Shown here in pieces: positions 4,957 through 47,515 of a stretch of 64,000 nt of DNA. Below the pieces are notes generated by a model. That model was not told the origin of the DNA, ran no database searches, and was given only the letters and a program-made list of their open reading frames with translations. Positions within the stretch are counted from its first letter, which is position 1; each line of letters starts with the position of its first letter. The stretch comes from Nitrospirota bacterium. Lineage in GTDB: Bacteria; Nitrospirota; Thermodesulfovibrionia; Thermodesulfovibrionales; Dissulfurispiraceae. Made by a program: the position numbers and the translations under genes. The stretch lies in NCBI GenBank assembly GCA_963710375.1, contig CAVPZX010000002.1, positions 160,001 to 224,000 on the forward strand, read 5' to 3'.

Positions 4957-6492
4957 ATGAAAGATAAATATCAACGTTCGAGAGAAAAGCTTTCCTCGAA
5001 TCCTAATTGGAAGTGGTTCATTTTATGCACTGTTTTGCTGGGCGCCACAATGTCTGCCCTTGATGTAAGTATTGTAAACGTGGCAATGCCGACCCTGAAA
5101 AACTCTTTTAAGGTCTCGATGGCGGTAATCGAATGGGTAGCGATCGCATACACGCTTGCACTGACGGTCTTCCTGCCGCTGTTTGGAAAACTGGCCGATA
5201 TGTATGGGAGGTCGAGGTTATACAATACCGGTTTTCTGGTGTTTTCAGCGGGTTCGTTGCTATGTGGACTGTCGACGTCGGCCGGCTATATGATCGTATC
5301 GAGAATCATCCAGGCTATCGGGGCTGGACTTCTGCAGGCCAACTCAGTTGCGCTCATTACGCAGGCTTTTCAGCCCTGCGAGCGGGGCAGGGCCATAGGT
5401 ATTCAGGGAGCGGTTCAGGCGGTCTCGATGTCGGTGGGTCCTTTTGTGGGCGGCCTTCTGATAGCCACCGTTGGCTGGAGAGCCATCTTCCTCATAAATA
5501 TCCCGATAGGTATACTCGGTACCGCAGCCGCGCTTTTCATTCTTCCTCCGGACCAGCTAATGAAAGAGAAGCAGAAGATAGATTACGTGGGAGCCGGGCT
5601 TTTCGCCTCAGGACTGGCGTTGCTGATGCTTGCTTTTAATGAGGTCGTCAGACTTGGCTGGGCATCACACATAATTATTTTTTATTCCCTGTCCGGCATC
5701 GCACTTTTGTCTCTTTTCGTAATAACGGAGCTTAAGGTGGAGAACCCGCTGATCAACCTTAAGCTATTCAGTCATCCCACCTTTCTCCTCGGGAACCTGA
5801 CAGGCATGATGTCATACGCTGTCCTGTTCGCAGTTTTGTTTCTGATGCCTTTTTATTTCGAAAAGGTATTGGGCTTCAGCACCGCGCTCACTGGCTCTCT
5901 CCTGACCCCTATACCGCTCGCCATGACGGTAGTCGCGCCATTATCCGGTTATATCTCGGACAAGCGGGGACCGAGAATAGTGACAACGCTGGGGATGCTT
6001 ATGTCCGCGTTGGCCTGCTTCTCTCTAGTATTCGTGGGACAATCGGTCCGCATCCCGCTGCTTGTAGTAGAATTGATTTTCCTCGGAGTTGGAATGGGAC
6101 TGTTCACCCCTCCGAACAACAGCGCTGTAATGGGCTCGGCTCCGAAAGATAAATTGGGCGTGGCCGGCGGCATTCTCAACATGATGCGGTCCCTGGGGCT
6201 CATATTCGGCGTAAACATTTCCGGCCTCATATTTACCTCCATGGAACACCGTTACCTGGCTGATAAAGGATACCCCGGCGTGGAGCGCGTTTTCAGTGAC
6301 AGCAGAATCCCTTTGCTCATCAGAGACAATGCCTTCATGCACGGTTTTATTGTAGTTATGGGAGCTCTCATTGTCCTGAATCTCGTCTCGGCCTTCTTTG
6401 CAGCCACTAATAAGAACTGGGTCGTGTTAGTTCAGAAACAGGCGACTCTGGAAAAGAAAAGGTGTGAATGGGCGGCGCAGAAGGGACGCTGA
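4957..6492 (+). CDS. MFS transporter, DHA2 (EmrB/QacA) family
   Basis: About 14 hydrophobic segments, LDVSIVNVAMP, GKLADMYGR, GWRAIFLINIPIG. Confidence 0.9.
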   Translation: MKDKYQRSREKLSSNPNWKWFILCTVLLGATMSALDVSIVNVAMPTLKNSFKVSMAVIEWVAIAYTLALTVFLPLFGKLADMYGRSRLYNTGFLVFSAGSLLCGLSTSAGYMIVSRIIQAIGAGLLQANSVALITQAFQPCERGRAIGIQGAVQAVSMSVGPFVGGLLIATVGWRAIFLINIPIGILGTAAALFILPPDQLMKEKQKIDYVGAGLFASGLALLMLAFNEVVRLGWASHIIIFYSLSGIALLSLFVITELKVENPLINLKLFSHPTFLLGNLTGMMSYAVLFAVLFLMPFYFEKVLGFSTALTGSLLTPIPLAMTVVAPLSGYISDKRGPRIVTTLGMLMSALACFSLVFVGQSVRIPLLVVELIFLGVGMGLFTPPNNSAVMGSAPKDKLGVAGGILNMMRSLGLIFGVNISGLIFTSMEHRYLADKGYPGVERVFSDSRIPLLIRDNAFMHGFIVVMGALIVLNLVSAFFAATNKNWVVLVQKQATLEKKRCEWAAQKGR

Positions 6493-6531
6493 GTTTATAT
6501 ACCGGGTAAAAAGACAGGGATTCTGGGTCTT

Positions 6532-8319
6532 TTATACCTGACTGTCGAGTTTGATGAACAACTCCTTCAGCTGCTTTGGTTCGACTGTTGAGGGAGCGCC
6601 GCTCAGAAGACATATCGCTTTCTGGGTTTTCGGAAATGCTATAACATCGCGTATCGATTGTGCGCCGACCATAAGCATTAACAGCCTGTCCAGCCCCAGC
6701 GCGATGCCGCCGTGAGGAGGCGCCCCATAGTCAAGGGCATCGAGCAGAAAGCCGAACTTTATTCGCGCCTCTTCGCCGGAGATGCCCAGAAGTTCAAATA
6801 TTTTGTTCTGCACGTCGCGTCTGTGAATACGGATGCTGCCGCCACCGATTTCGCAGCCGTTCAGCACAATGTCATATGCCTTTGCCCTGAACGATGCTGT
6901 CAGCTCCCGGTCATTGCCGCCTGATGCAACGAGCCTGTCTATATCATCGTCCACAGGCGATGTGAAGGGATGGTGAATGGCGACAAAACGCTTTTCGTCT
7001 TCGTCCCACTCCAACAGGGGAAAATCAAGTATCCATACAAAGTTGAATTCATCTTTTATCAGTTCCAGCCGCTTGCCAAGTTCAAGCCGCATACGGCTTA
7101 GCACATCGTGGACGATTTTCTCCTTGTCAGCCACGAAAAGCATCAAATCACCTTCGCCTGCATCGAGTCTCTCCGCCATTTGCTGCAGCACATCTTGGGG
7201 GAAGAATTTTGCAATCGGTGAATCAAAACCGCCTTTTACCTTGATCCACGCAAGGCCTTTTGCTCCGAAAGACTGGGCCTCTTCCGTGAGCATGTCGATT
7301 TCTTTCCTCGAAAGGCCCGCCATCCCCTTGCCGTTAATTGCCTTGACCCGTCCGCCGGATGACAGGGCATCGAGAAAAACCTTGAAGGACCCTCTTGAGG
7401 CAAGGTCCGCCATGTCTTTGAGTTCCATCCCGAACCGCATATCGGGTTTGTCGTTTCCGAACCGTTCCATCGATTCTGTGAAACCGAGCCGCTGAAAAGG
7501 GATTTGTATATCTTTGTGCAGTACTTCCTGGAAAAGCCTTTTCATGAGCATCTCGATAAGTGGTATGATATCCTCCCTGTCAATAAAGGACATCTCCAAA
7601 TCAACCTGCGTAAATTCGGGCTGCCGGTCAGCCCTTAAATCCTCATCCCTGAAGCACTTGACGATCTGGAAGTATCTTTCGAGTCCCGACACCATTAGTA
7701 TCTGTTTAAAAAGCTGCGGCGATTGTGGTAATGCAAAGAACTGGCCCTGGTTGAGCCTGCTCGGAACAAGATAATCCCGAGCACCTTCAGGCGTGGACTT
7801 TGTGAGCATAGGTGTTTCTATTTCAAGGAAGCCCTGCTCATCCAGGTAGTCCCTGATGAGCTTTGTCACCTTGTGGCGCACAATAAGATTCTGCTGCAGC
7901 TCAGGTCTCCTCAGATCGAGATACCTGTATTTGAGCCGTAGAGCCTCCGAAGCTTCACCGGCTTCCTCCATGGGGAACGGCAGTGCTTCAGACTCATTTA
8001 ACACTATGAGAGTATCGACATACAGTTCGATCATGCCTGTCCTGAGGTTGGGATTCTCGCTGCCTTCCGGCCTTTTCCGCACTGCCCCTGCCACCGATAT
8101 TACAAATTCCGCCCTAAGGTCATGTGCAAGCGTGTGCGCCTCCTCCGAAACATCGGAACTGAAAACGACTTGCACGAGCCCGCTCCTGTCGCGCAGATCG
8201 ACAAATATCAGTCCGCCGTGGTCCCTCCTCCTAAAGACCCAGCCGGCAAGAGTGCAACGGGAACCGATATCAGCAGAATCAAGCTCACCACACCATTTAT
8301 CACGAAACATAGTTGACAT
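6532..8319 (-). CDS. aspS: Aspartate--tRNA ligase
   Basis: [48 protein letters not shown]. Confidence 0.98.
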
Positions 8320-27560: not shown

Positions 27561-28781
27561 TTACCCGCTTTCTGCCAGGCCAAAGGCTTCATGAAGCACC
27601 CTGACGGCAAGTTCGGTATATTTCAGGTTGATAATGCAAGAAACTTTTATTTCAGAAGTGCTGATCATGATAATGTTTATGCCCTGTTTCGCAAGGGTTT
27701 CGAACATCTGTGCAGCAACGCCGGAATGGGTCCTCATGCCGACGCCGACAATGGAAATCTTGGAGATGTCATCTCTCAGCGTCACCACTTTTGCGCCGAT
27801 TTCCTTTGCAATCTCCTCTGTCAGCTTAAGAGCCTTTTTACTGTCTGTCCTCGGCAGAGTGAAAGAGATATCGGCGTCCCTTCCATCGCTGCTCACGTTC
27901 TGTACAATCATATCGACCACTATGCCCGCATCAGCAATCCTTTTAAATATTGTGGCAGCGACTCCCGGCTTGTCAGGGACTCCCGTAACCGTAATTTTTG
28001 TCTGATTTTTATCGTATGCGACCCCTGACACCACAACCTTTTCCATATCCTCATCCTCCTTGGTCACCAAAGTGCCCTGGTTGTCGTTGAAGCTCGACCG
28101 CACGACCACAGGCACCTCATATTTCATGGCGAATTCGACCGATCGCGTCTGCAGCACTTTTGCGCCAAGACTTGCAAGCTCCAGCATCTCCTCAAAGGAG
28201 ATCTTGTCCAGCTTTCTGGCATCAGGAACAATGTTCGGATCAGTGGTGTAGACACCATCGACATCAGTATAAATTTCGCATATGTCAGCATTCAATGCAG
28301 AGGCTATCGCCACTGCAGAGAGATCAGACCCTCCCCGCCCGAGAGTGGTCACGTCCTCAGTCTCAGTTATACCCTGGAAACCGGCAATCACCAGAATGTA
28401 ATTCTCTGAAAGCGCCTTTTTCGCCCGTTCAGAGGCGATTTTCTCTATCTTCGCCCTCATGTGGACCTTGTCCGTAATGATGCCCATTTGCCTGCCGGTA
28501 AACGCCATTGCCTTGTACCCCAGCTCTTCTATGGCCATGGCAGTGAGCGCACTGGTGACCCGTTCCCCAGAGGAAAGAAGCAGGTCCATTTCACGCTCGT
28601 TCGGATTTAATGAAACCTGATGGGCCAGCTCAATGAGTTTGTCAGTTTCTCCGGACATTGCGGAAACAACGACAACGACCTTGTTGCCTTCCTTCGCCGA
28701 CTTTACCACTCGCTCGGCAACTGCCTTGATCCTCTCGGTATTTGCAACGGACGTGCCGCCGTATTTCTGAACGATGAGCAT
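27561..28781 (-). CDS. lysC: Aspartate kinase
   Basis: [17 protein letters not shown], two ACT domains, STSEIK. Confidence 0.97.
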
Positions 28782-30001
28782 TAAGCCAGAACTTCCTTGA
28801 TAAAATAATCCATCAGCCGGTGGCCTTCTTCAACTACCATGATATCCTTTCTGCCGGTGATTGATTCGTCATAGGAGACGCCTTCGTTGTTTTTCTTTTT
28901 GCGGCTATCGTATATGACAAACGGCACAGGTTCATCAGTATGGGTCCTGATTTTTACCGGTGTAGCGTGATCGGGCAGCAGCAAAATGCGATATTCCCTG
29001 AACCTTTCGTCCAGGCCTTTCAGTACCGGCCCCACCACAAAGGCATCGAAATCCGCGATAGCCTTGAGTTTGTCTTTACAATTTCCCGAATGCCCTGCCT
29101 CGTCAGGGGCCTCTATATGCAGATAGACAAAATCCACTTTTTCCAGAGCATCGAGGGCATGCTCAGTCTTGCCGGCGTAATTAGTATCCAGCCAACCTGT
29201 TGCGCCCGGCACATTGAGCACTTCAAATCCGGCGCAGACGCCCAACCCCTTGGTAAGATCGACCGCGGATACGAGCGCCCCGCTAATTCCGTATTTCTCC
29301 TTATATGACGGAATCTGAGGTTTCTTTCCCTGGCCCCATAGCCAAATACTACTGGCCGGTTTCTTGCCATTATCAACCCGCTTCCTGTTTACCGGATGAT
29401 CATCGAGGAGCACAGCAGATTTCATCATCAGCTCTCTGAGAACATTCTGTCCTCTGCCTGAAGGTAGGTAACCGGAAATTTCCTTTTCAAGTATGTCATG
29501 AGGCGGTGTGCATTCCATGTCCGCATAGCCGTTCTTCCATACCATGAGATGCCGGTAGCTGACACCAGGGTAGAATACTATGTCCTTACTGCCCAGCCTT
29601 TGTTGGACAGTACCTATAATTTCCCTGGCTTCCTCAGTCGATATGTGTCCGCAGCTGTAATCATCCATAACGGCGCTTGTCTTGTCCGCGCCAAACCTCA
29701 GCGTTATGAGGTTGCACCGGTAGGCAACATCTTGCGTATCGAGCGCCACGCCGATACTTGCCGCTTCGAGCGGCGCTCTTCCCGTATAGTAGCGCAGGGG
29801 GTCATAACCGAGGATGCTCAGGTTTGCAACATCGGACCCGGGGTGAACGCCCTTGGGAACCGTGCGCACGCTCCCGATAATCCCTTCGCGGGCCAATCTG
29901 TCCATATTGGGCGTTTCAGCCTTTTTGAGCGGAGTCAACCCGCCCAGTTCCTCAACCGGCCTGTCCGCCATGCCGTCACCGATGATAACAATGTATTTCA
30001 T
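28781..30001 (-). CDS. ApgM-family phosphoglycerate-mutase-like protein, candidate alternative homoserine kinase
   Basis: [32 protein letters not shown]; lies between thrC and lysC. Confidence 0.85.
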
Positions 30002-30161: not shown

Positions 30162-31256
30162 TTATAGTACCTTTTCTATTATTTTCCTGACTTCATCGAA
30201 TTCGGCCTTGACCTTAATCGCTTCGTCAGCCACTTTGAACACCGTATCAGGGTCCTTCAATCCGTTCCCTGTCAATGTACACACTACGGTCTCGCCCTTC
30301 CTGAAAAAACCGGCCCTGTATAATTTAATAACACCGGCAAGCGATGCAGCAGAAGCCGGCTCACAGAAAATACCCTCATGCGAGGCAATGAGCTTGTAAG
30401 CAGCCAGTATCTCATCATCCGTAACCATGTCTATGCGTCCGCCCGACTCATCCCTTGCCGCCTCGGCGCTCTTCCAGCTTGCCGGATTGCCGATCCTGAT
30501 TGCAGTAGCAATCGTCTCCGGTTTTTGAATGCGATGACCGAGAACAATGGGCGCCGCCCCTGCTGCCTGAAAGCCGAGCATCTTGGGTAAACCCGTTATC
30601 ATGCCCTCCCTGTAATATTCTCCGTAGCCTCTCCAATAAGCGGTAATGTTTCCAGCATTGCCGACCGGCAATGCATGGTAGTCCGGTGCAGCGCCAAGAT
30701 AGTCACACACTTCAAACGCCGCTGATTTCTGTCCTTCTATTCTAAAAGGGTTAATGGAATTGACAAGTGTGATCGGATATTTCGAGACCACCTCTTTGAC
30801 AATCGTTAACGCATCATCAAAATTTCCCTGAATTTGCAATACTGTAGCGCCATGCACCAACGCCTGTACGAGCTTTCCGAGTGCGATCTTACCTTCGGGG
30901 ATCACAACTATGGCCTTTATGCCTGCCCGTGCGGCGTAGGCTGCCGCCGATGCCGATGTATTCCCGGTTGAGGCGCAGATCACTGCTTTTGATCCTGACT
31001 CAACCGCCTTTGAAAGCGCAAGCGTCATGCCCCTGTCCTTGAAAGAGCCTGTCGGATTGGCGCCATCGAACTTAAAATAAATAGTGAGGTCCCCTCTGAC
31101 TTGTTCTGGCAGATTGACCGCTTTGATAAGCGGGGTATTGCCCTCCAGAAGACTCACAACCGGAGTGCTTTCACTAACAGGAAAAAATCTTCCGTATGCT
31201 TCAATAATACCTTTCCACAATGTCCGTGTACCAGAATTACACGCTCCCACCTTCAT
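30162..31256 (-). CDS. thrC: Threonine synthase
   Basis: [51 protein letters not shown]. Confidence 0.93.
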
Positions 31257-31293: not shown

Positions 31294-31530
31294 TTACTGT
31301 ATGACGTCTCCTTCGATCAGTTCCACCTCAATCCCCTGATCCTGTAAAGACTTGATTCCCTTTTCAAGGTTTTCTTCGTCCCCCTCAAGCTCAAGAATCA
31401 TTTCTCCGACAGTATCGGTTACGCGCGCCCGCCGTATATTGGGCAATACGTCATACTTTCTGGCCATGGTAAATAGCACAGGTTCTTTAATAAGATTTTG
31501 AGGAAACGTCAATTTCACACGCCTCTTCAT
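31294..31530 (-). CDS. Stand-alone NIL-domain protein
   Basis: LTFP...[29 protein letters not shown]. Confidence 0.8.
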
Positions 31531-31572
31531 CTACCCCTCCTCTTTAATCGTCGCACGTCAAGCTAATTTTTT

Positions 31573-31875
31573 TTACACTCGACCAGTGACGCCGCACGCT
31601 GTTTGCCCTCCGGCTATTGCCGGAACAATGGAAACCTCATCCCCGTCCTTTACAGGCGTCTGTTCAGCCTGCAAAAACCGGATATCCTCCTCATTGACAT
31701 AGACGTTAACAAATCTTCTGACCTTGCCCCCCTCTGATATTCTCTCGGCAATACCCGGGTATCGCGAATCAAGGTCGTTGATAAGTCCTATCACCGAACC
31801 GGCCTTGCCTTCAACTTCCTCTTTCCCTGCTGTCAGCCGCTGAAGCGGCGTCGGAATTCTCACTTTTACCGCCAT
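31573..31875 (-). CDS. MoaD/ThiS/CysO-like sulfur carrier with C-terminal extension after Gly-Gly
   Basis: VRIPTPL, NVYVNEEDIRF, DGDEVSIVPAIAGG followed by QTACGVTGRV. Confidence 0.92.
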   Translation of the reverse strand: MAVKVRIPTPLQRLTAGKEEVEGKAGSVIGLINDLDSRYPGIAERISEGGKVRRFVNVYVNEEDIRFLQAEQTPVKDGDEVSIVPAIAGGQTACGVTGRV

Positions 31876-31895
31876 GAAATCACCTCCTTAAAATC

Positions 31896-31960
31896 AGGCT
31901 AAAAGCTAATGACAAGAAATACTCTTTCTGTTCCTTTAGCCCATCGCCTTTTGCCTTTCC
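31896..31960. repeat. Degenerate inverted heptamer array
   Basis: CAGGCTAAAAGCTAA ... CCTTTAGCCCATCGCCTTTTGCCTTT. Confidence 0.5.
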
Positions 31961-31963
31961 TTA

Positions 31964-33202
31964 TTACCTATCGCCTATTTTTTTTAATATCTCTTCAAAT
32001 GACGGCATGTTCGGTTTGATGTGATGCATTTCCGCCGTATGCCCGTTGAGCGCCTCCTGGGTCTTCAGGCCATTGCCGGTAATACATATTACCGTTCTTT
32101 CATTTCTGCCTATCCTTCCCTGCTCAATCAGCTTCTTTGCCGTTGCGACCGTAACGCCCCCGGCAGTCTCGGCAAAAATGCCCTCGGTCTTTGCAAGCAG
32201 CTTTATTCCATCGATAATTTCTTCGTCGGAAACATCCTCTGCATATCCCCCGGTTTCATTGACGATATGGCTGGCATAGTACCCGTCGGCAGGGTTGCCG
32301 ATGGCAAGCGATTTAGCCACCGTATTCGGCTTGACCGGTTTTATTACATCAGTACCCTGCTTTATGGCAGCAGATATGGGAGAACAGCCTGTTGCCTGCG
32401 CTGCAAACACTTTTGTCCCCAGTTTTTTGATCAACCCTATTTCCTTGCATTCCTTAAATGACTTCCACACCTTTGTGAGAAGCGAACCGCTGGCGCAGGG
32501 CACAACCACATTATCGGGCGCTTCCCATCCCAGTTGTTCCACAATCTCGAAACCCTGCGTCTTGGAGCCCTCTGCGTAGAACGGCCTGATGTTTATATTT
32601 ACAAATGCCCACGGGTACTTATTAGCGATCTCGCTGCAAAGCCTGTTGACCTCATCGTAATTGCCATCGACAGCCACAAGATTCGGTTCATATACCAGCG
32701 AGGCCACTATCTTGCTCTGCTCCAGTGACGCGGGAATAAACACAAAACATTTGAAGCCGGCCTTTGCGCCATGAGCCGAAACCGAGTGGGCCAGGTTGCC
32801 TGTAGATGCGCATGCCACCGTATCAAACCCGAACTCCTTCGCCTTGGTAAGCGCAACGGCAACAACTCTATCCTTGAACGACAAAGTCGGATGGGCCACC
32901 GTATCATCTTTAACGTACAGCTCCCTGACCCCAAGGGCACTCGCAAGGTTATCAGCCCTTATAAGGGGAGTAAAGCCGGAATTGAGTCCTACCTGGGGCT
33001 CGCCGTCGATGGGCAGAAGCTCTTTATAACGCCAGAGGTTCCCATCCCTCCTTTCTATTGTCTTACGCGTCAACTTCTTTTTGATCTTTTTGTAGTCATA
33101 ACTTACTTCCAGGGGACCGAAGCAAAATTCGCAGACATATATAGGATCAACAGGATACTCCCTGCCGCATTCCCTGCATTTCAGGCCTTTTACATATCCC
33201 AT
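31964..33202 (-). CDS. Threonine-synthase-like PLP enzyme (second paralogue; candidate O-phosphohomoserine sulfhydrylase)
   Basis: N-terminal CRECG...CEFC, HPTLSFKDRVV, ASTGNLA, PCASGSL, AETAGG; directly upstream of sulfur carrier. Confidence 0.88.
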   Translation of the reverse strand: MGYVKGLKCRECGREYPVDPIYVCEFCFGPLEVSYDYKKIKKKLTRKTIERRDGNLWRYKELLPIDGEPQVGLNSGFTPLIRADNLASALGVRELYVKDDTVAHPTLSFKDRVVAVALTKAKEFGFDTVACASTGNLAHSVSAHGAKAGFKCFVFIPASLEQSKIVASLVYEPNLVAVDGNYDEVNRLCSEIANKYPWAFVNINIRPFYAEGSKTQGFEIVEQLGWEAPDNVVVPCASGSLLTKVWKSFKECKEIGLIKKLGTKVFAAQATGCSPISAAIKQGTDVIKPVKPNTVAKSLAIGNPADGYYASHIVNETGGYAEDVSDEEIIDGIKLLAKTEGIFAETAGGVTVATAKKLIEQGRIGRNERTVICITGNGLKTQEALNGHTAEMHHIKPNMPSFEEILKKIGDR

Positions 33203-33351
33203 AAGAACCTCCTGTTTATTACCGAGAATTTAACCGCCTGACAACTTTAAGAGTAAAGCATATTTTACTTTAAAACAGAAAGAAAATCAAAGTGGTAGGG
33301 ATCGGCAGGGGCAGGCTGTTTATCGGAGCGCTGCCCTTCTCCTGTCATCCG

Positions 33352-33753
33352 CTAGCAAACCCTAATTTCGATTTCTTCAACAACTCCGCTTGTGATGAAG
33401 AACGCTTTAACCACAGGTTCTCTTTCGGAAAGACTCACAATGACATAAGCGCTGTCTTCGTAAAACGCAAGTGCCACATCCTTTGCGGACGGATATGAAG
33501 CAGAGGCAGGGTGGGAATGGAACAGTGCGACAATCGAAAGGCTCTCGTTGCGGAGCGCCTTCATGACCTCGAATTGCTCTTTTGAATCCATCAAGTAACT
33601 CACTGGCGAGCTTTCAACATTTCGCATCGGGAAAAGTCTGGACACCTCATTGCCGACGCCGGCCAAAATGCCGCAAGCCTCATTCGGATAGCCCTCCCTG
33701 CAATGAGCTATCATATCGTCGAAAATAAGTTGAGGCATAGTTATACTATTCAT
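33352..33753 (-). CDS. JAMM/MPN+ (M67, Mec-like) metallopeptidase
   Basis: PNEACG and HSHPASASYPSAKD (E...HxH-x7-S-x2-D). Confidence 0.92.
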   Translation of the reverse strand: MNSITMPQLIFDDMIAHCREGYPNEACGILAGVGNEVSRLFPMRNVESSPVSYLMDSKEQFEVMKALRNESLSIVALFHSHPASASYPSAKDVALAFYEDSAYVIVSLSEREPVVKAFFITSGVVEEIEIRVC

Positions 33754-33764
33754 CGTTTTACCAT

Positions 33765-33955
33765 CTTCGGCAGATGAGGATATGTCTCTGTAGCGAAGCG
33801 TTCTGTTTTGGTAACAGTTCTTTGCGAAATGAAGCGTTAAACAGCCGCAAGTGTCTGAGCCCATAGGGCGAGTTTTGCGGCTGTAGCGGAATGAGCTATA
33901 GAACTGTCAAAACAGAACGCCTGAGCGAAAGAGACATATCCTCCATCTGCCGAAG
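33765..33955. mobile_element. MITE-like long palindromic element, 191 bp
   Basis: Ends CTTCGGCAGATG-AGGATATGTCTCT / AGAGACATATCCTCCATCTGCCGAAG; inner stems GCGTTCTGTTTTG/CAAAACAGAACGC and ACAGCCGCAA/TTGCGGCTGT. Confidence 0.85.
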
Positions 33956-33958
33956 CAC

Positions 33959-34762
33959 CTACATTCTGCAGTATTCAGCCTCATAATCCTGGAGTTCGGT
34001 AATTGTGGGGTTCTTCCCGCACACCGGGCATTCATCATTCTTGGGTACACTGACACGTCTGAAAGTGGTCTTCAGGGCATCATATATCAGCAGCGTGTTT
34101 TTCAGCACCTCACCCTTGCCCAGAATGAGTTTGATGACCTCGACAGCCTGCAAAGAGCCGATTACACCGGGAATCGCTCCGATAACTCCAACCTCCTGGC
34201 ATGAGGGCACAAGTCCTGCCGGCGGCATCTCTTCAAACAGGCACCGGTAGCAGTGGCCTTCTCCAGGCAAAACAGTAGTTACCTGGCCCTCGAACCTCAG
34301 AATCGCTCCGCTAACAAGCGGCTTTTTCATCAGGACACAGGCGTCATTAATCAGATAACGGGTCGGGAAGTTATCGCTACCGTCCACAACGATATCATAA
34401 TCCTTTATCAAATTCATTATAGTATCCTTTGAAAGTCTTTCTGCAATGCCTATGACATTCACATCCGGATTCAATGCTTCAAAGGTCAACTTGGCAGACT
34501 CAACTTTCAGCATGCCGAGCGTCCTCGTACTGTGAGCTATCTGCCGTTGAAGGTTGCTCATTTCTACCCTGTCATTATCAATGATCCCTATAGTGCCCAC
34601 CCCTGCCGCGGCGAGATAATAGCCAACAGGGCTTCCCAGTCCTCCAGCCCCGATAATAAATACTTTAGCAGCCAGCAGTTTTTTCTGCCCCTTTGCTCCA
34701 ACCTCGGGCAGGAGTATGTGGCGGCTGTAACGTTGCAGCTGATCTTCGGTGAATTCCTGCAT
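33959..34762 (-). CDS. moeB: MoeB/ThiF-family sulfur-carrier adenylyltransferase
   Basis: RYSRH, GAGGLG, SNLQRQ, CYRC, PSC, CPVC; no rhodanese domain. Confidence 0.92.
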   Translation of the reverse strand: MQEFTEDQLQRYSRHILLPEVGAKGQKKLLAAKVFIIGAGGLGSPVGYYLAAAGVGTIGIIDNDRVEMSNLQRQIAHSTRTLGMLKVESAKLTFEALNPDVNVIGIAERLSKDTIMNLIKDYDIVVDGSDNFPTRYLINDACVLMKKPLVSGAILRFEGQVTTVLPGEGHCYRCLFEEMPPAGLVPSCQEVGVIGAIPGVIGSLQAVEVIKLILGKGEVLKNTLLIYDALKTTFRRVSVPKNDECPVCGKNPTITELQDYEAEYCRM

Positions 34763-34872
34763 AAAGCTCCCCTCCCATGCCGAGGGAAAAAATTCACTCA
34801 AGCAATGAGATAATCTTATTAAATTATAAGTCTAATTTATCACAACGGAAAACTGAAAGGCAATGAGGATCT

Positions 34873-36198
34873 CTATCCTTCGCTACCCTCAACTCTGATA
34901 AACAGCGTTTTATCGGATACAACGGGCAGGGCGTCGATCTCCCTTACAGACTTGAGCACATCCCTTTCTCTGGCCCTGTGAGCAAGCACGACAAGCGGAA
35001 CAGATCCCCCGATGCTCCTGCCTTTCTGAATAACTGACGCGATGCTTATATTGTGGCTGCCGAGGATGCCCGATATCTTCGACAGGACGCCAGGCTCATC
35101 CAGCGCGGAAAATCTGAAATAGTACATGCTTTCTATATCAGCAATCCTTTTAATCTTTTTTTCTCCTGTGCCGAGAGAAGAATGGGCCGTGATGCCCGGG
35201 ACACGCAAGACGCCGCCACACATGATGTTCCGTACGATATCAACAACATCGGCGACAACAGCACTTCCGGTCGGCATATCGCCTGCGCCCCTGCCATAAT
35301 ATAGAGTAGAGCCCGATGCATCGCCTTCTACATACACGGCATTGAAAACTCCGTCGACCTTTGAAATCAAATATTCATTAGGCACCATGGTGGGATGCAC
35401 CCGCATCTCGATGCCTTCAGCAGTCGCCTTTGTGATTGCCAGGAGCTTCACTTTATAGCCGAGTTCCAGGGCAAAGGCAATGTCCTGGGCGGTTATTCTT
35501 GTAATGCCCTCTTTATACACATCGTCATACGACAGCGGGATCCCATAGGCCAGAGAGGCAAGTATAGTGAGTTTATGTGCGGAATCGATCCCCTCTATAT
35601 CAAAGGTCGGATCAGCCTCAGCATACCCTAGCCGCTGCGCTTCTCTCAGCGCGGTTGAGAAGTTGACCTTCTCGTCGGTCATCTTTGTCAATATGTAATT
35701 AGACGTTCCATTGATAATACCGTACACGGCAATGATCCTGTTTGAAACGAGTCCTTCTCTTATCACTTTGATGATAGGGATGCCTCCGGCAACTGATGCC
35801 TCAAACCCTATTTCAACGCCGGCCCGCTCAGCCTCGGCAAAGAGTTCATTCCCCTCGGTGGCGAGCAGCGCCTTATTTGCGGTAACAACATGCTTCCTGT
35901 TCCTTATGGCCTGGAGTATGAATTCCTTTGCAGGATGAATACCTCCCATAAGCTCAATCACGACATCGATTTCTGGATCGTTGATCACTGAGGATGCATC
36001 GGTAGTCAACACGCCGGATGGAACGTTTATGCCCCTGTCCCTCGTGATGTCAAGGTCCGCGATTCTCTTCAAAGCGATGTTAATGCCTGTCCTCTCCCTG
36101 ATGACCGCGGCATTTTCGAGTAAAATTCGCGTGGTCCCCGAGCCGACCGTGCCGAATCCTATGATGCCTACCGAAACAGTGTCCTGTTTAATTGTCAT
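34873..36198 (-). CDS. hom: Homoserine dehydrogenase
   Basis: [34 protein letters not shown]-terminal ACT. Confidence 0.97.
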
Positions 36199-46284: not shown

Positions 46285-47406
46285 TTATTCTTTCATGATA
46301 GTATACTTTCCATCCTTGTCGATCTTAATATTGGCATTGAGGAATCGCACCTTGAAGCCGGCCTCTTTAAGCGTATGGTATGCCATCTCGGCCCTTAAGC
46401 CGGTATCGCAATACAAAATAATCTCCTTGTCCCTCGTGATGTCCTTAAACCTGTTTTTGAGGTCCCATGAAGGCACGTTCAAAGCACCCTTAAGCATGCC
46501 CTGCAATGCTTCGTCCTCGTCACGCACATCCAGAAGCAACTTGTCTGCCGGTGATGTCTCAGCTATCCGCTTGAACTCCTCGATAGAGATTTCGCCGGCT
46601 CTTAACTTCGGCACATAAACAATCCTTGTCGCCACGTCCCCGCTTATAACGAGTCCGCCGGAGCGCTTCCATTCATCAAGGCCGCCGTCGAGAACCGCGA
46701 CGTTTGTATAGCCCCAACCCCTCACCGATGCAAAGTCGTCCAACTCGGACTTTGTATCATTGTCGTACAGCATTATCGGGGCAGATTTGTCTGAAGGGAA
46801 CCTCTCCTTTTCATACCGAAGGTCCTTTCCAGGTACAGAAACCGCGCCTACGATGTGTCCTCTCTTTGCCTCATCTGTCGGCCGCAGATCAATCAGTACA
46901 AAGGGAATACCCTTTTCGAGATACTCCTTGAGACTCTGCACAGAAGAAACGACAAGGTTGCCGGCCTTCTTCCATGCATGCAATCCATCGGCAAAGACTT
47001 TGACTCTTGTATACCCCATTTTCTCAGCCTTACCAGCACAGAACTGGCTCAGACGGCAGGCGCGTGACCCACAATAAAAAATTATCATCTTGTTCTTTTC
47101 TTTAGGCAGCTTTCCGGCAGATTCGTTGAATTCCCGATATGGTATCGAAATCGCCCCGGGAATGTGTCCTTCATCATAAAACACAAGAGGCCTCGAATCC
47201 ACAAGCTCAAATTTTCCTTCTTCCGGCCCCAGCGCCACAAGTCTGGCAACTTCATCTGCAGTGACAATCTTCTCCGGAGCAACCTTTGCCTGCACAGCTG
47301 TTTTCATTTTCTGCGACATGTCCCCGGCCGTGACAGTAGTGCTGAAAAAGACAAATCCTGCCGTCATAGCCGCGGCAAGGACTGCCGCTTTGCTCTTGCT
47401 TCCCAT
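46285..47406 (-). CDS. Exported triple rhodanese-domain protein
   Basis: Signal peptide, VDSR..GHIPGA..YCGSRAC, IDLR..GHIVGA..YD, LDVR..YCDTGLRA. Confidence 0.88.
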   Translation of the reverse strand: MGSKSKAAVLAAAMTAGFVFFSTTVTAGDMSQKMKTAVQAKVAPEKIVTADEVARLVALGPEEGKFELVDSRPLVFYDEGHIPGAISIPYREFNESAGKLPKEKNKMIIFYCGSRACRLSQFCAGKAEKMGYTRVKVFADGLHAWKKAGNLVVSSVQSLKEYLEKGIPFVLIDLRPTDEAKRGHIVGAVSVPGKDLRYEKERFPSDKSAPIMLYDNDTKSELDDFASVRGWGYTNVAVLDGGLDEWKRSGGLVISGDVATRIVYVPKLRAGEISIEEFKRIAETSPADKLLLDVRDEDEALQGMLKGALNVPSWDLKNRFKDITRDKEIILYCDTGLRAEMAYHTLKEAGFKVRFLNANIKIDKDGKYTIMKE

Positions 47407-47515
47407 ACTCGCTCCTTTCGTAAAAAGCACTACGCATAGTTAGTTAAGATGACTAAAACTTATACTAGCGACAATGGTCTAAATATTTCAACAACAAAAA
47501 AAGAGAGTAGTGGAA

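Follow-up and report, generated by a model that had tools for sequence, protein, structure and literature searches.

A divergent threonine synthase homolog in Nitrospirota is likely a carrier-dependent homocysteine synthase

We analyzed a 64-kb stretch of DNA from a Nitrospirota bacterium (the window; positions 160001-224000 of contig 2 of a 3.19-Mb source genome that is 98.76% complete). Within a block of genes for homoserine and threonine synthesis, the window encodes two homologs of threonine synthase: a canonical ThrC and a divergent protein, ThrC2, whose gene is followed by that of a MoaD/ThiS-like sulfur carrier. We think it likely that ThrC2 and this carrier convert O-phosphohomoserine to homocysteine, as MetM and MetO do. 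A first-pass annotation of the window had suggested as much, and the phylogenetic tree, the sequence motifs, the gene content of the genome, and the distribution of ThrC2 across the phylum all support it. This reading is well supported, but the pathway is already known: MetM/MetO were described in 2024, and the same pathway was predicted for Dissulfurispira thermophila by GapMind in 2026 (PMC13759103; papers are cited here from excerpts).

ThrC2 (412 residues; 31964..33202, minus strand) is an enzyme of the pyridoxal phosphate (PLP)-dependent threonine synthase fold with an N-terminal CxxC...CxxC. It is about 36-37% identical to the bacterial threonine synthases with solved structures, and a structural model and a fold search indicate the same fold. 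It also passes the TIGR00260 model for threonine synthase (297.6 bits versus a cut-off of 167.1). A closer homolog is the product of a thrC-like gene from Nonomuraea gerenzanensis, which is 53% identical to ThrC2 over 409 residues. The Nonomuraea gene has an S-adenosylmethionine (SAM) riboswitch ahead of it (RF00162, 68.7 bits) and a carrier gene after it, whose product ends in GG and is 53% identical to the carrier in the window. In Streptomyces albulus, metO reportedly lies downstream of metM. The S. albulus metM also has an upstream SAM riboswitch (PMC12172450). We used the Nonomuraea pair as a proxy for MetO and the characterized MetM (A0A059WBP2) of S. albulus.

In trees with 21 or 48 rows, a branch with 100/100 support separates the ThrC2 proteins and the Nonomuraea proxy from the other rows. 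ThrC2 thus stands with the proxy for MetM and apart from canonical ThrC. The canonical thrC of the window groups with a second Nonomuraea gene and with the genes of hom-thrC-thrB clusters in Priestia and Lysinibacillus (59-64% identity), and a clade of the two local paralogs is rejected (p-value of the approximately unbiased test, 7e-16). Because of a long-branch warning, we also built trees without the long branches, and haloarchaeal and Chlorohelix ThrC-like rows were dropped. The motifs agree with the tree: all ThrC2 rows have N[ILV]RP[FY]Y[AG]EG and AKS[LI]AIGNPADG, while canonical ThrC rows have NP[FY]R[IL][EQ]G and A[TS]AIR[IV]GNPA[ST]W. The Nonomuraea proxy shares N[IL]RP[FY]Y[AG]EG with ThrC2. 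The arginine of NP[FY]R, which has a phosphate-binding role, is displaced in all ThrC2 rows and retained in the canonical ThrC. These sequence comparisons suggest that ThrC2 is likely a MetM-type homocysteine synthase. MetM proteins are often misannotated as threonine synthase (PMC13759103), and the 120 listed homologs of the Nonomuraea proxy, none of them from Streptomyces, carried threonine synthase as their only name. ESM Atlas matches had generic names only, and we found no solved structure of S. albulus MetM.

The gene content of the source genome points the same way. The first-pass annotation had seen no metA, metX, or metY in the window, and this holds for the genome as a whole: searches of the entire genome found no MetX, MetA, or DUF39, and no full-length member of PF01053 (the MetY/MetB family), which had just seven partial matches (best, 1e-8). 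The N-terminal domain of MetH and MetE were also not found by the genome search. A 337-residue protein (C4:15193-16206; L122:9194-10207) has a weak match to Meth_synt_2 in a motif scan (21.5 bits versus a cut-off of 21), and, going by the description of MesB in excerpts of PMC7857596, it is a candidate MesB-like core methionine synthase. Because no other route to homocysteine was found, ThrC2 is the only candidate that we found for the homocysteine source that the organism needs.

To describe the distribution of ThrC2, we used a sample of 151 genomes of the phylum, including the source genome. We considered homologs with E values below 1e-100 to be ThrC2 orthologs, along with one 65% fragment (in G017). 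ThrC2 is present in 115 genomes and was not found in 36. A gene for another homocysteine route (DUF39, MetX, or a homolog of plant-type cystathionine gamma-synthase, CGS) is present in 34 of the 36 genomes without ThrC2 versus 16 of the 115 with it. The two genomes with neither are G123, which is 91% complete, and G018, in which JAMM and NIL are also missing and which probably has an assembly gap. All six genomes with DUF39 lack both ThrC2 and JAMM; in family f14, six of the seven genomes have DUF39 and lack JAMM, and the seventh has MetX. In G125, from the same family as the source genome, thrC2 has been lost, and metX, two metY genes, and metW are present. Replacement of ThrC2 by MetX alone fits poorly, as five genomes have both and four have MetX only.

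In family f16, 26 of the 27 genomes that lack ThrC2 encode a PF01053 protein that is closest to plant CGS (1i41/1qgn, 362 bits versus 302 for the next). This CGS-like gene adjoins a plant-type thrC in 65 of the 68 metagenome loci that have room upstream. A plant-type thrC followed directly by the CGS homolog occurs at L097:6269-8816 (in G005; the CGS-like protein at 6269-7477) and in 80 metagenome loci (L160-L239), mostly from genomes without MetX. Plant CGS uses O-phosphohomoserine (10.64898/2026.09.15.751699), and this bacterial gene pair resembles the point at which phosphohomoserine metabolism branches in plants. Our literature search found no paper on a bacterial pair of plant-type thrC and CGS.

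The neighborhood of thrC2 is conserved. We fetched 80 related loci, and in all 75 that extend at least 1.5 kb downstream of thrC2, the gene is followed by the carrier and then by a gene for a NIL-domain protein. The nearest named ThrC2 loci are from Nitrospirota (Thermodesulfovibrionales, Dissulfurispiraceae) and are up to 96% identical. In the window, the MetO-like carrier is at 31573..31875 (minus strand; PF02597 at residues 5-90), and the NIL protein is a stand-alone domain of 78 residues (31294..31530, minus strand; PF09383). The first-pass annotation had described a Gly-Gly sulfur carrier. The Gly-Gly is there, but it is not terminal: it is at residues 89-90 and is followed by a tail of 10 residues. 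Such tails are common. Across the 80 loci, 78 carriers could be read to a stop codon, of which five end at the GG, 69 have 1-20 more residues that are not conserved, three are fused to NIL, and one is fused to MoeB, so that 73 of the 78 have a tail or a fusion. (The GG is invariant in 42 aligned carriers, which were chosen to end there.)

All three carriers of the source genome are tailed, and we found one JAMM protease in the genome: the Mec-type protein (133 residues; 33352..33753, minus strand; PF14464) that is encoded upstream of thrC2 and has an intact E...HSH...S..D motif. Given the tail, the JAMM protein should be needed at least for carrier maturation, and because maturation alone suffices, its presence is already explained and does not by itself point to the release of homocysteine that the first-pass annotation had proposed, although JAMM might also release a product bound to the carrier. 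Mec is assigned to MetO maturation in the GapMind 2026 supplement (PMC13759103), which has the wording "N terminus." The carriers that are fused after the GG to the next protein (L020, L065, and L070 to NIL; L077 to MoeB) resemble ubiquitin fusion precursors, and some could be read-through errors; carrier-NIL fusions recur in most of 43 longer NIL homologs.

How sulfur reaches the carrier is less straightforward. MoeZ, the E1 of the mycobacterial relay, has a rhodanese domain. The MoeB/ThiF-type E1 adenylyltransferase in the window (267 residues; 33959..34762, minus strand) has none, as the first-pass annotation had noted: it scores over the cut-off for NF004281 and contains only a ThiF domain (PF00899), with Cys188, two CxxC pairs, and a C-terminal Cys retained. 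Of the related loci, 24 have moeB upstream of thrC2, and in 19 of these, tusA lies directly before moeB. (This operon TusA matches PF01206, and the closest NCBIfam models, YedF and YeeD, are both under cut-off.) An alignment to the closest relative (L001) shows that the leader that precedes tusA there is kept in the window (34763..34872, minus strand) and runs straight into moeB. In other words, tusA was cleanly deleted from the block in the source genome, and the genome search found no ortholog of the operon TusA elsewhere. Assembly error is ruled out because contigs from two studies other than that of the possible source run, X1 (runs X3 and X6), bridge the junction, the run X6 contig with 29 differing letters. 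In L001 itself, an IS1182-family transposase lies between hom and tusA (L001:4002-5594).

The tail of MoeB varies with tusA. We surveyed 46 hom-moeB loci and left out one that is frameshifted. All 35 intact loci with tusA encode a cysteine near the C-terminus of MoeB. Of the 10 loci without tusA, five lack the tail cysteine, three encode a shorter tail that still contains a cysteine, and two are unchanged. The tail cysteine thus tracks tusA, and its retention in the source genome fits a recent loss of tusA. The operon tusA likely supplies sulfur in the relatives, and from the co-occurrence, we speculate that a persulfide relay from TusA to the MoeB tail cysteine stands in for the rhodanese domain.

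The source genome has other candidate donors: an IscR-TusA-IscS-IscU cluster (L109), a TusA near hdrA (L111), and a YedF-like protein (L110). The window also encodes a protein with three rhodanese domains and an apparent signal peptide (46285-47430, minus strand), which might be involved in thiosulfate or polysulfide handling. We considered whether the organism is a sulfate reducer that makes its own sulfide, and ruled this out: we did not find dsrA, which is present in 55 of 61 genomes of the class, or any siroheme sulfite reductase (PF01077) in the source genome. Lacking a sulfite reductase, the organism would have to import free sulfide. This lack, and the presence of TusA before MoeB in most relatives, make the first-pass suggestion that sulfide may be the direct donor less secure. 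As a separate observation, a CysM-like gene (in the source genome, G000:C5:459241-460149; L240) occurs in 16 of the 17 genomes of the class that lack the operon TusA versus 12 of the 25 that have it. The split is exact within the family (5 versus 8). Kin in these counts are not independent, and the pattern may come from two modes of thiosulfate use.

The proposed pathway would run as follows. LysC (27561..28781, minus strand; NF005155 over cut-off), Hom (34873..36198, minus strand; NF004976 at 546 bits versus a cut-off of 205, with PF00742 and the ACT domain PF01842), and HomK (28781..30001, minus strand; TIGR02535 at 558 bits versus a cut-off of 446) belong to the aspartate kinase, homoserine dehydrogenase, and homoserine phosphotransferase families, and together they would produce O-phosphohomoserine. 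The HomK family has been confirmed by complementation (PMC13759103). Canonical ThrC (30162..31256, minus strand; TIGR00260 over cut-off) would convert part of the O-phosphohomoserine to threonine. JAMM would expose the Gly-Gly of the carrier by cutting off the 10 residues behind it, and MoeB would adenylate the carrier and load sulfur as a C-terminal thiocarboxylate. In most relatives, this sulfur would probably pass through the co-occurring operon TusA and C-terminal cysteine of MoeB, a transfer on which we can only speculate; in the source genome, where tusA is deleted, it would come from another donor, such as the unlinked TusA/IscS, a rhodanese, or imported sulfide. ThrC2 would then carry out a gamma-replacement on O-phosphohomoserine with sulfur from the carrier to form homocysteine, which the MesB-like enzyme would methylate to methionine.

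Several observations weigh against this reading. A Microcystis homolog that is 51.6% identical to MetM and is encoded beside a metO-like gene was a threonine synthase and deaminase in vitro, and the authors judged it not to be fully a MetM (PMC12172450). In our sample, ThrC2 is the sole ThrC-like match in three genomes (G001, G045, and G120), which may reflect assembly gaps or bifunctionality. The assignment of ThrC2 to the MetM family, which we make from sequence similarity, goes through an uncharacterized Nonomuraea proxy. An Rfam scan found no riboswitch at threshold in the window or in four Nitrospirota loci; the SAM riboswitch is a trait of S. albulus that is not universal, and only L081 matched among six sources. 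Because related genomes are not independent, the mutual exclusion of ThrC2 and other routes amounts to about three independent events. Nor do the partner genes track ThrC2: JAMM is found in 142 of the 151 genomes and NIL in 148, which rules out that NIL tracks ThrC2. Among the 27 genomes of f16 that lack ThrC2, the NIL locus was retrieved for 17, and in 16 of these, hom-moeB-carrier-NIL-homK is intact and thrC2 is simply missing. In those 16 loci, the ratio of nonsynonymous to synonymous polymorphism (pN/pS) is 0.134 for the carrier and 0.168 for NIL, versus 0.128 and 0.147 in seven loci with ThrC2. Because the relay is kept under purifying selection after the loss of thrC2, the carrier has another client. 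It is not exclusive to ThrC2, which weakens the exclusive link between them.

We weighed three other explanations. ThrC2 might mainly be a second or bifunctional threonine synthase/deaminase, with homocysteine as at most a side activity. Its TIGR00260 score, the kinetics of the Microcystis homolog (PMC12172450), the absence of thrC1 from several loci, and the three genomes in which ThrC2 is the sole match would all fit. However, a canonical thrC is in the same block, a further ThrC-like gene accompanies ThrC2 in most of the genomes that have it, the arginine of NP[FY]R is displaced in every ThrC2 row, and the source genome would be left without a route to homocysteine. We consider this explanation unlikely, while some bifunctionality of ThrC2 is possible. 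Alternatively, ThrC2 might make homocysteine from free sulfide, with the relay serving a client in cysteine synthesis, molybdopterin synthesis, or tRNA thiolation. The purifying selection on the relay after loss of thrC2 would make sense under this scenario, as would the pattern in the class sample: of 42 genomes, 17 had no match to the operon tusA, and 16 of those 17 retain thrC2. But the adjacency of thrC2 and the carrier in 75 of 75 loci and in Nonomuraea would not be expected, and MetM is described as dependent on the thiocarboxylate of MetO (PMC13759103). Also, the source genome has separate carriers (a ThiS beside thiG and a MoaD-like protein beside an aldehyde oxidoreductase-like gene) and lacks sulfite reductase. 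These points make the free-sulfide explanation very unlikely.

Finally, the first-pass annotation had named cysteine synthesis from O-phosphoserine, in the manner of CysM and CysO, as the alternative. The set of E1, JAMM, and carrier does resemble MoeZ, Mec, and CysO. Cysteine synthesis from a thiocarboxylate is also cited in PMC6225789. Yet the source genome encodes CysE, two CysK proteins over cut-off, and a CysM-like protein just under cut-off, and CysK/M is found in 150 of the 151 genomes regardless of ThrC2. In eight loci from other families, the block with thrC2 also encodes its own CysK along with an additional carrier, which is ThiS-like, and an additional E1. ThrC2 has the threonine synthase fold and lies outside the cysteine synthase family: its cysKM scores are just 36-41 bits (36 bits versus a cut-off of 344), and it scores 64 bits with the cysteate synthase model TIGR03844 (cut-off, 325). 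We therefore view a cysteine-forming ThrC2 as extremely improbable.

The model of NIL has a predicted local distance difference test score (pLDDT) of 89, and its top Foldseek matches are to MetNI, specifically the C2 domain of MetN (TM scores of 0.84-0.87). The C2 domain of MetN binds methionine. In family f16, the cassette tusA-moeB-JAMM-carrier-NIL is kept without thrC2 (L130-L147; for example, G038:C7:90552-92900). Because the relay and NIL are kept together without ThrC2, NIL may act on the relay; it probably senses methionine as an accessory to the carrier machinery and not to ThrC2. Candidates for the second client of the carrier are the plant-CGS-like enzyme or a cysteine synthase. In none of 80 metagenome loci does the plant-CGS-like gene neighbor a gene of the relay. 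A broader but doubtful idea is that TusA-MoeB-JAMM-carrier-NIL serves the Nitrospirota as a general sulfur hub that is regulated by methionine. TusA would pass a persulfide to the MoeB tail cysteine, NIL would be a feedback subunit on the relay instead of on MetM, and the thiocarboxylate would be handed to unrelated PLP enzymes, including, in f16, the CGS homolog beside the plant-type thrC, which would use it to convert phosphohomoserine to homocysteine. Some blocks contain a double relay: L087-L091, L093, L094, and L104 have a ThiS-like carrier, CysK, an E1, thrC2, a MoaD-like carrier, NIL, and a second E1, and most of them have a single JAMM. This arrangement suggests carrier-linked synthesis of cysteine and homocysteine side by side.

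It is useful to compare this system with those already described. The Streptomyces system that the first-pass annotation had named is real (PMC13759103, PMC12172450), and its proteins MetO, Mec, MoeZ, and MetM, described by Hasebe et al. 2024 (AEM 90:e01247-24), are part of GapMind 2026 (PMC13759103). The common features are a ThrC homolog, a MoaD-like carrier, a JAMM protein for carrier maturation, an E1, and O-phosphohomoserine as the substrate (predicted here). In contrast to S. albulus, all of the parts lie in the hom-thrC block, TusA and NIL are extra, the E1 lacks a rhodanese domain, HomK rather than ThrB would supply the substrate, no SAM riboswitch was found, and the carriers end in tails that vary or continue into NIL or MoeB as fusions. 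The pathway that GapMind predicts for D. thermophila is the same and is in the same phylum, and the named neighbors of our ThrC2 include Dissulfurispiraceae. That case is a prediction only, as is the diverged Mec of D. thermophila (A0A7G1H0A1, in Table 4), and neither NIL nor TusA is mentioned for the pathway in the excerpts of PMC13759103. Our literature search, which did not extend to the primary MetM paper, found no paper that links NIL or TusA to MetM/MetO.

CysO, CysM, Mec, and MoeZ from Mycobacterium also comprise a carrier, a PLP enzyme that acts on a phosphorylated amino acid, a JAMM protein, and an E1. However, CysM is a member of the cysteine synthase family and performs a beta-replacement on phosphoserine. 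In Wolinella, the Hcy route reportedly uses O-acetylhomoserine and MetY, a fold-type-I enzyme. Like the system in the window, HcyS/HcyD/HcyF/MetY from Wolinella succinogenes use a carrier thiocarboxylate as the sulfur donor for homocysteine and have E1 and JAMM partners (PMC8191291, PMC6225789); it is MetY that uses the carrier (PMC8191291). Unlike Wolinella, the source genome lacks MetX, MetY, and sulfite reductase. Wolinella-type clusters do occur in other Nitrospirota genomes: L157 (G057) and L116 (G042) have metY-like genes with carriers, moeB, JAMM, and tusA, and a moeB-JAMM-sulfite reductase arrangement. In the route with DUF39, a NIL-ferredoxin, and COG2122, the NIL domain is likewise tied to homocysteine synthesis, but that route begins with aspartate semialdehyde, its NIL is fused to ferredoxin, and it has no carrier (PMC5764234). 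DUF39 is absent from the source genome and is mutually exclusive with ThrC2 in our sample (6/6).

The gene block itself is largely as the first-pass annotation had described it: hom, moeB, JAMM, thrC2, the carrier, and NIL are real genes, and they lie together on the minus strand, upstream of canonical thrC. The unit is longer than had been given, with homK, lysC, and cimA downstream of thrC. We revised two start codons: JAMM likely begins at the ATG at 33753 (133 residues, instead of 170 from the open reading frame finder) and MoeB at the ATG at 34762 (267 residues, instead of 280). Between moeB and JAMM is a palindromic repeat of about 170 bp (33755..33958, no strand), which folds with z = -12.4 and has 19 BLAST matches of at least 150 bp across the genome, counting self-matches. 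A related contig of run X6 skips this repeat. It is an insertion similar to a miniature inverted-repeat transposable element and is outside the pathway; a short hairpin related to it is near 33300-33335. Scans for promoters and terminators were near chance (18 versus 10.1 and 9 versus 7.9, respectively). Short remnants of thrC between NIL and homK in L133 (from G125), L023, and L036 mark repeated losses of thrC. Elsewhere in the source genome, near C5:117000-123600, open reading frames resemble a nif cluster.

What we add to the known pathway is the clean deletion of tusA, the tracking of tusA by the MoeB tail cysteine, and the persistence of the relay and NIL after the loss of thrC2. The deletion and the tail-cysteine pattern provide a natural comparison for how an E1 that lacks a rhodanese domain is loaded with sulfur. 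The annotation of ThrC2 as "threonine synthase" can be corrected, and the pathway likely explains how most Nitrospirota (115 of the 151 genomes sampled) make methionine without metA, metX, or metY.

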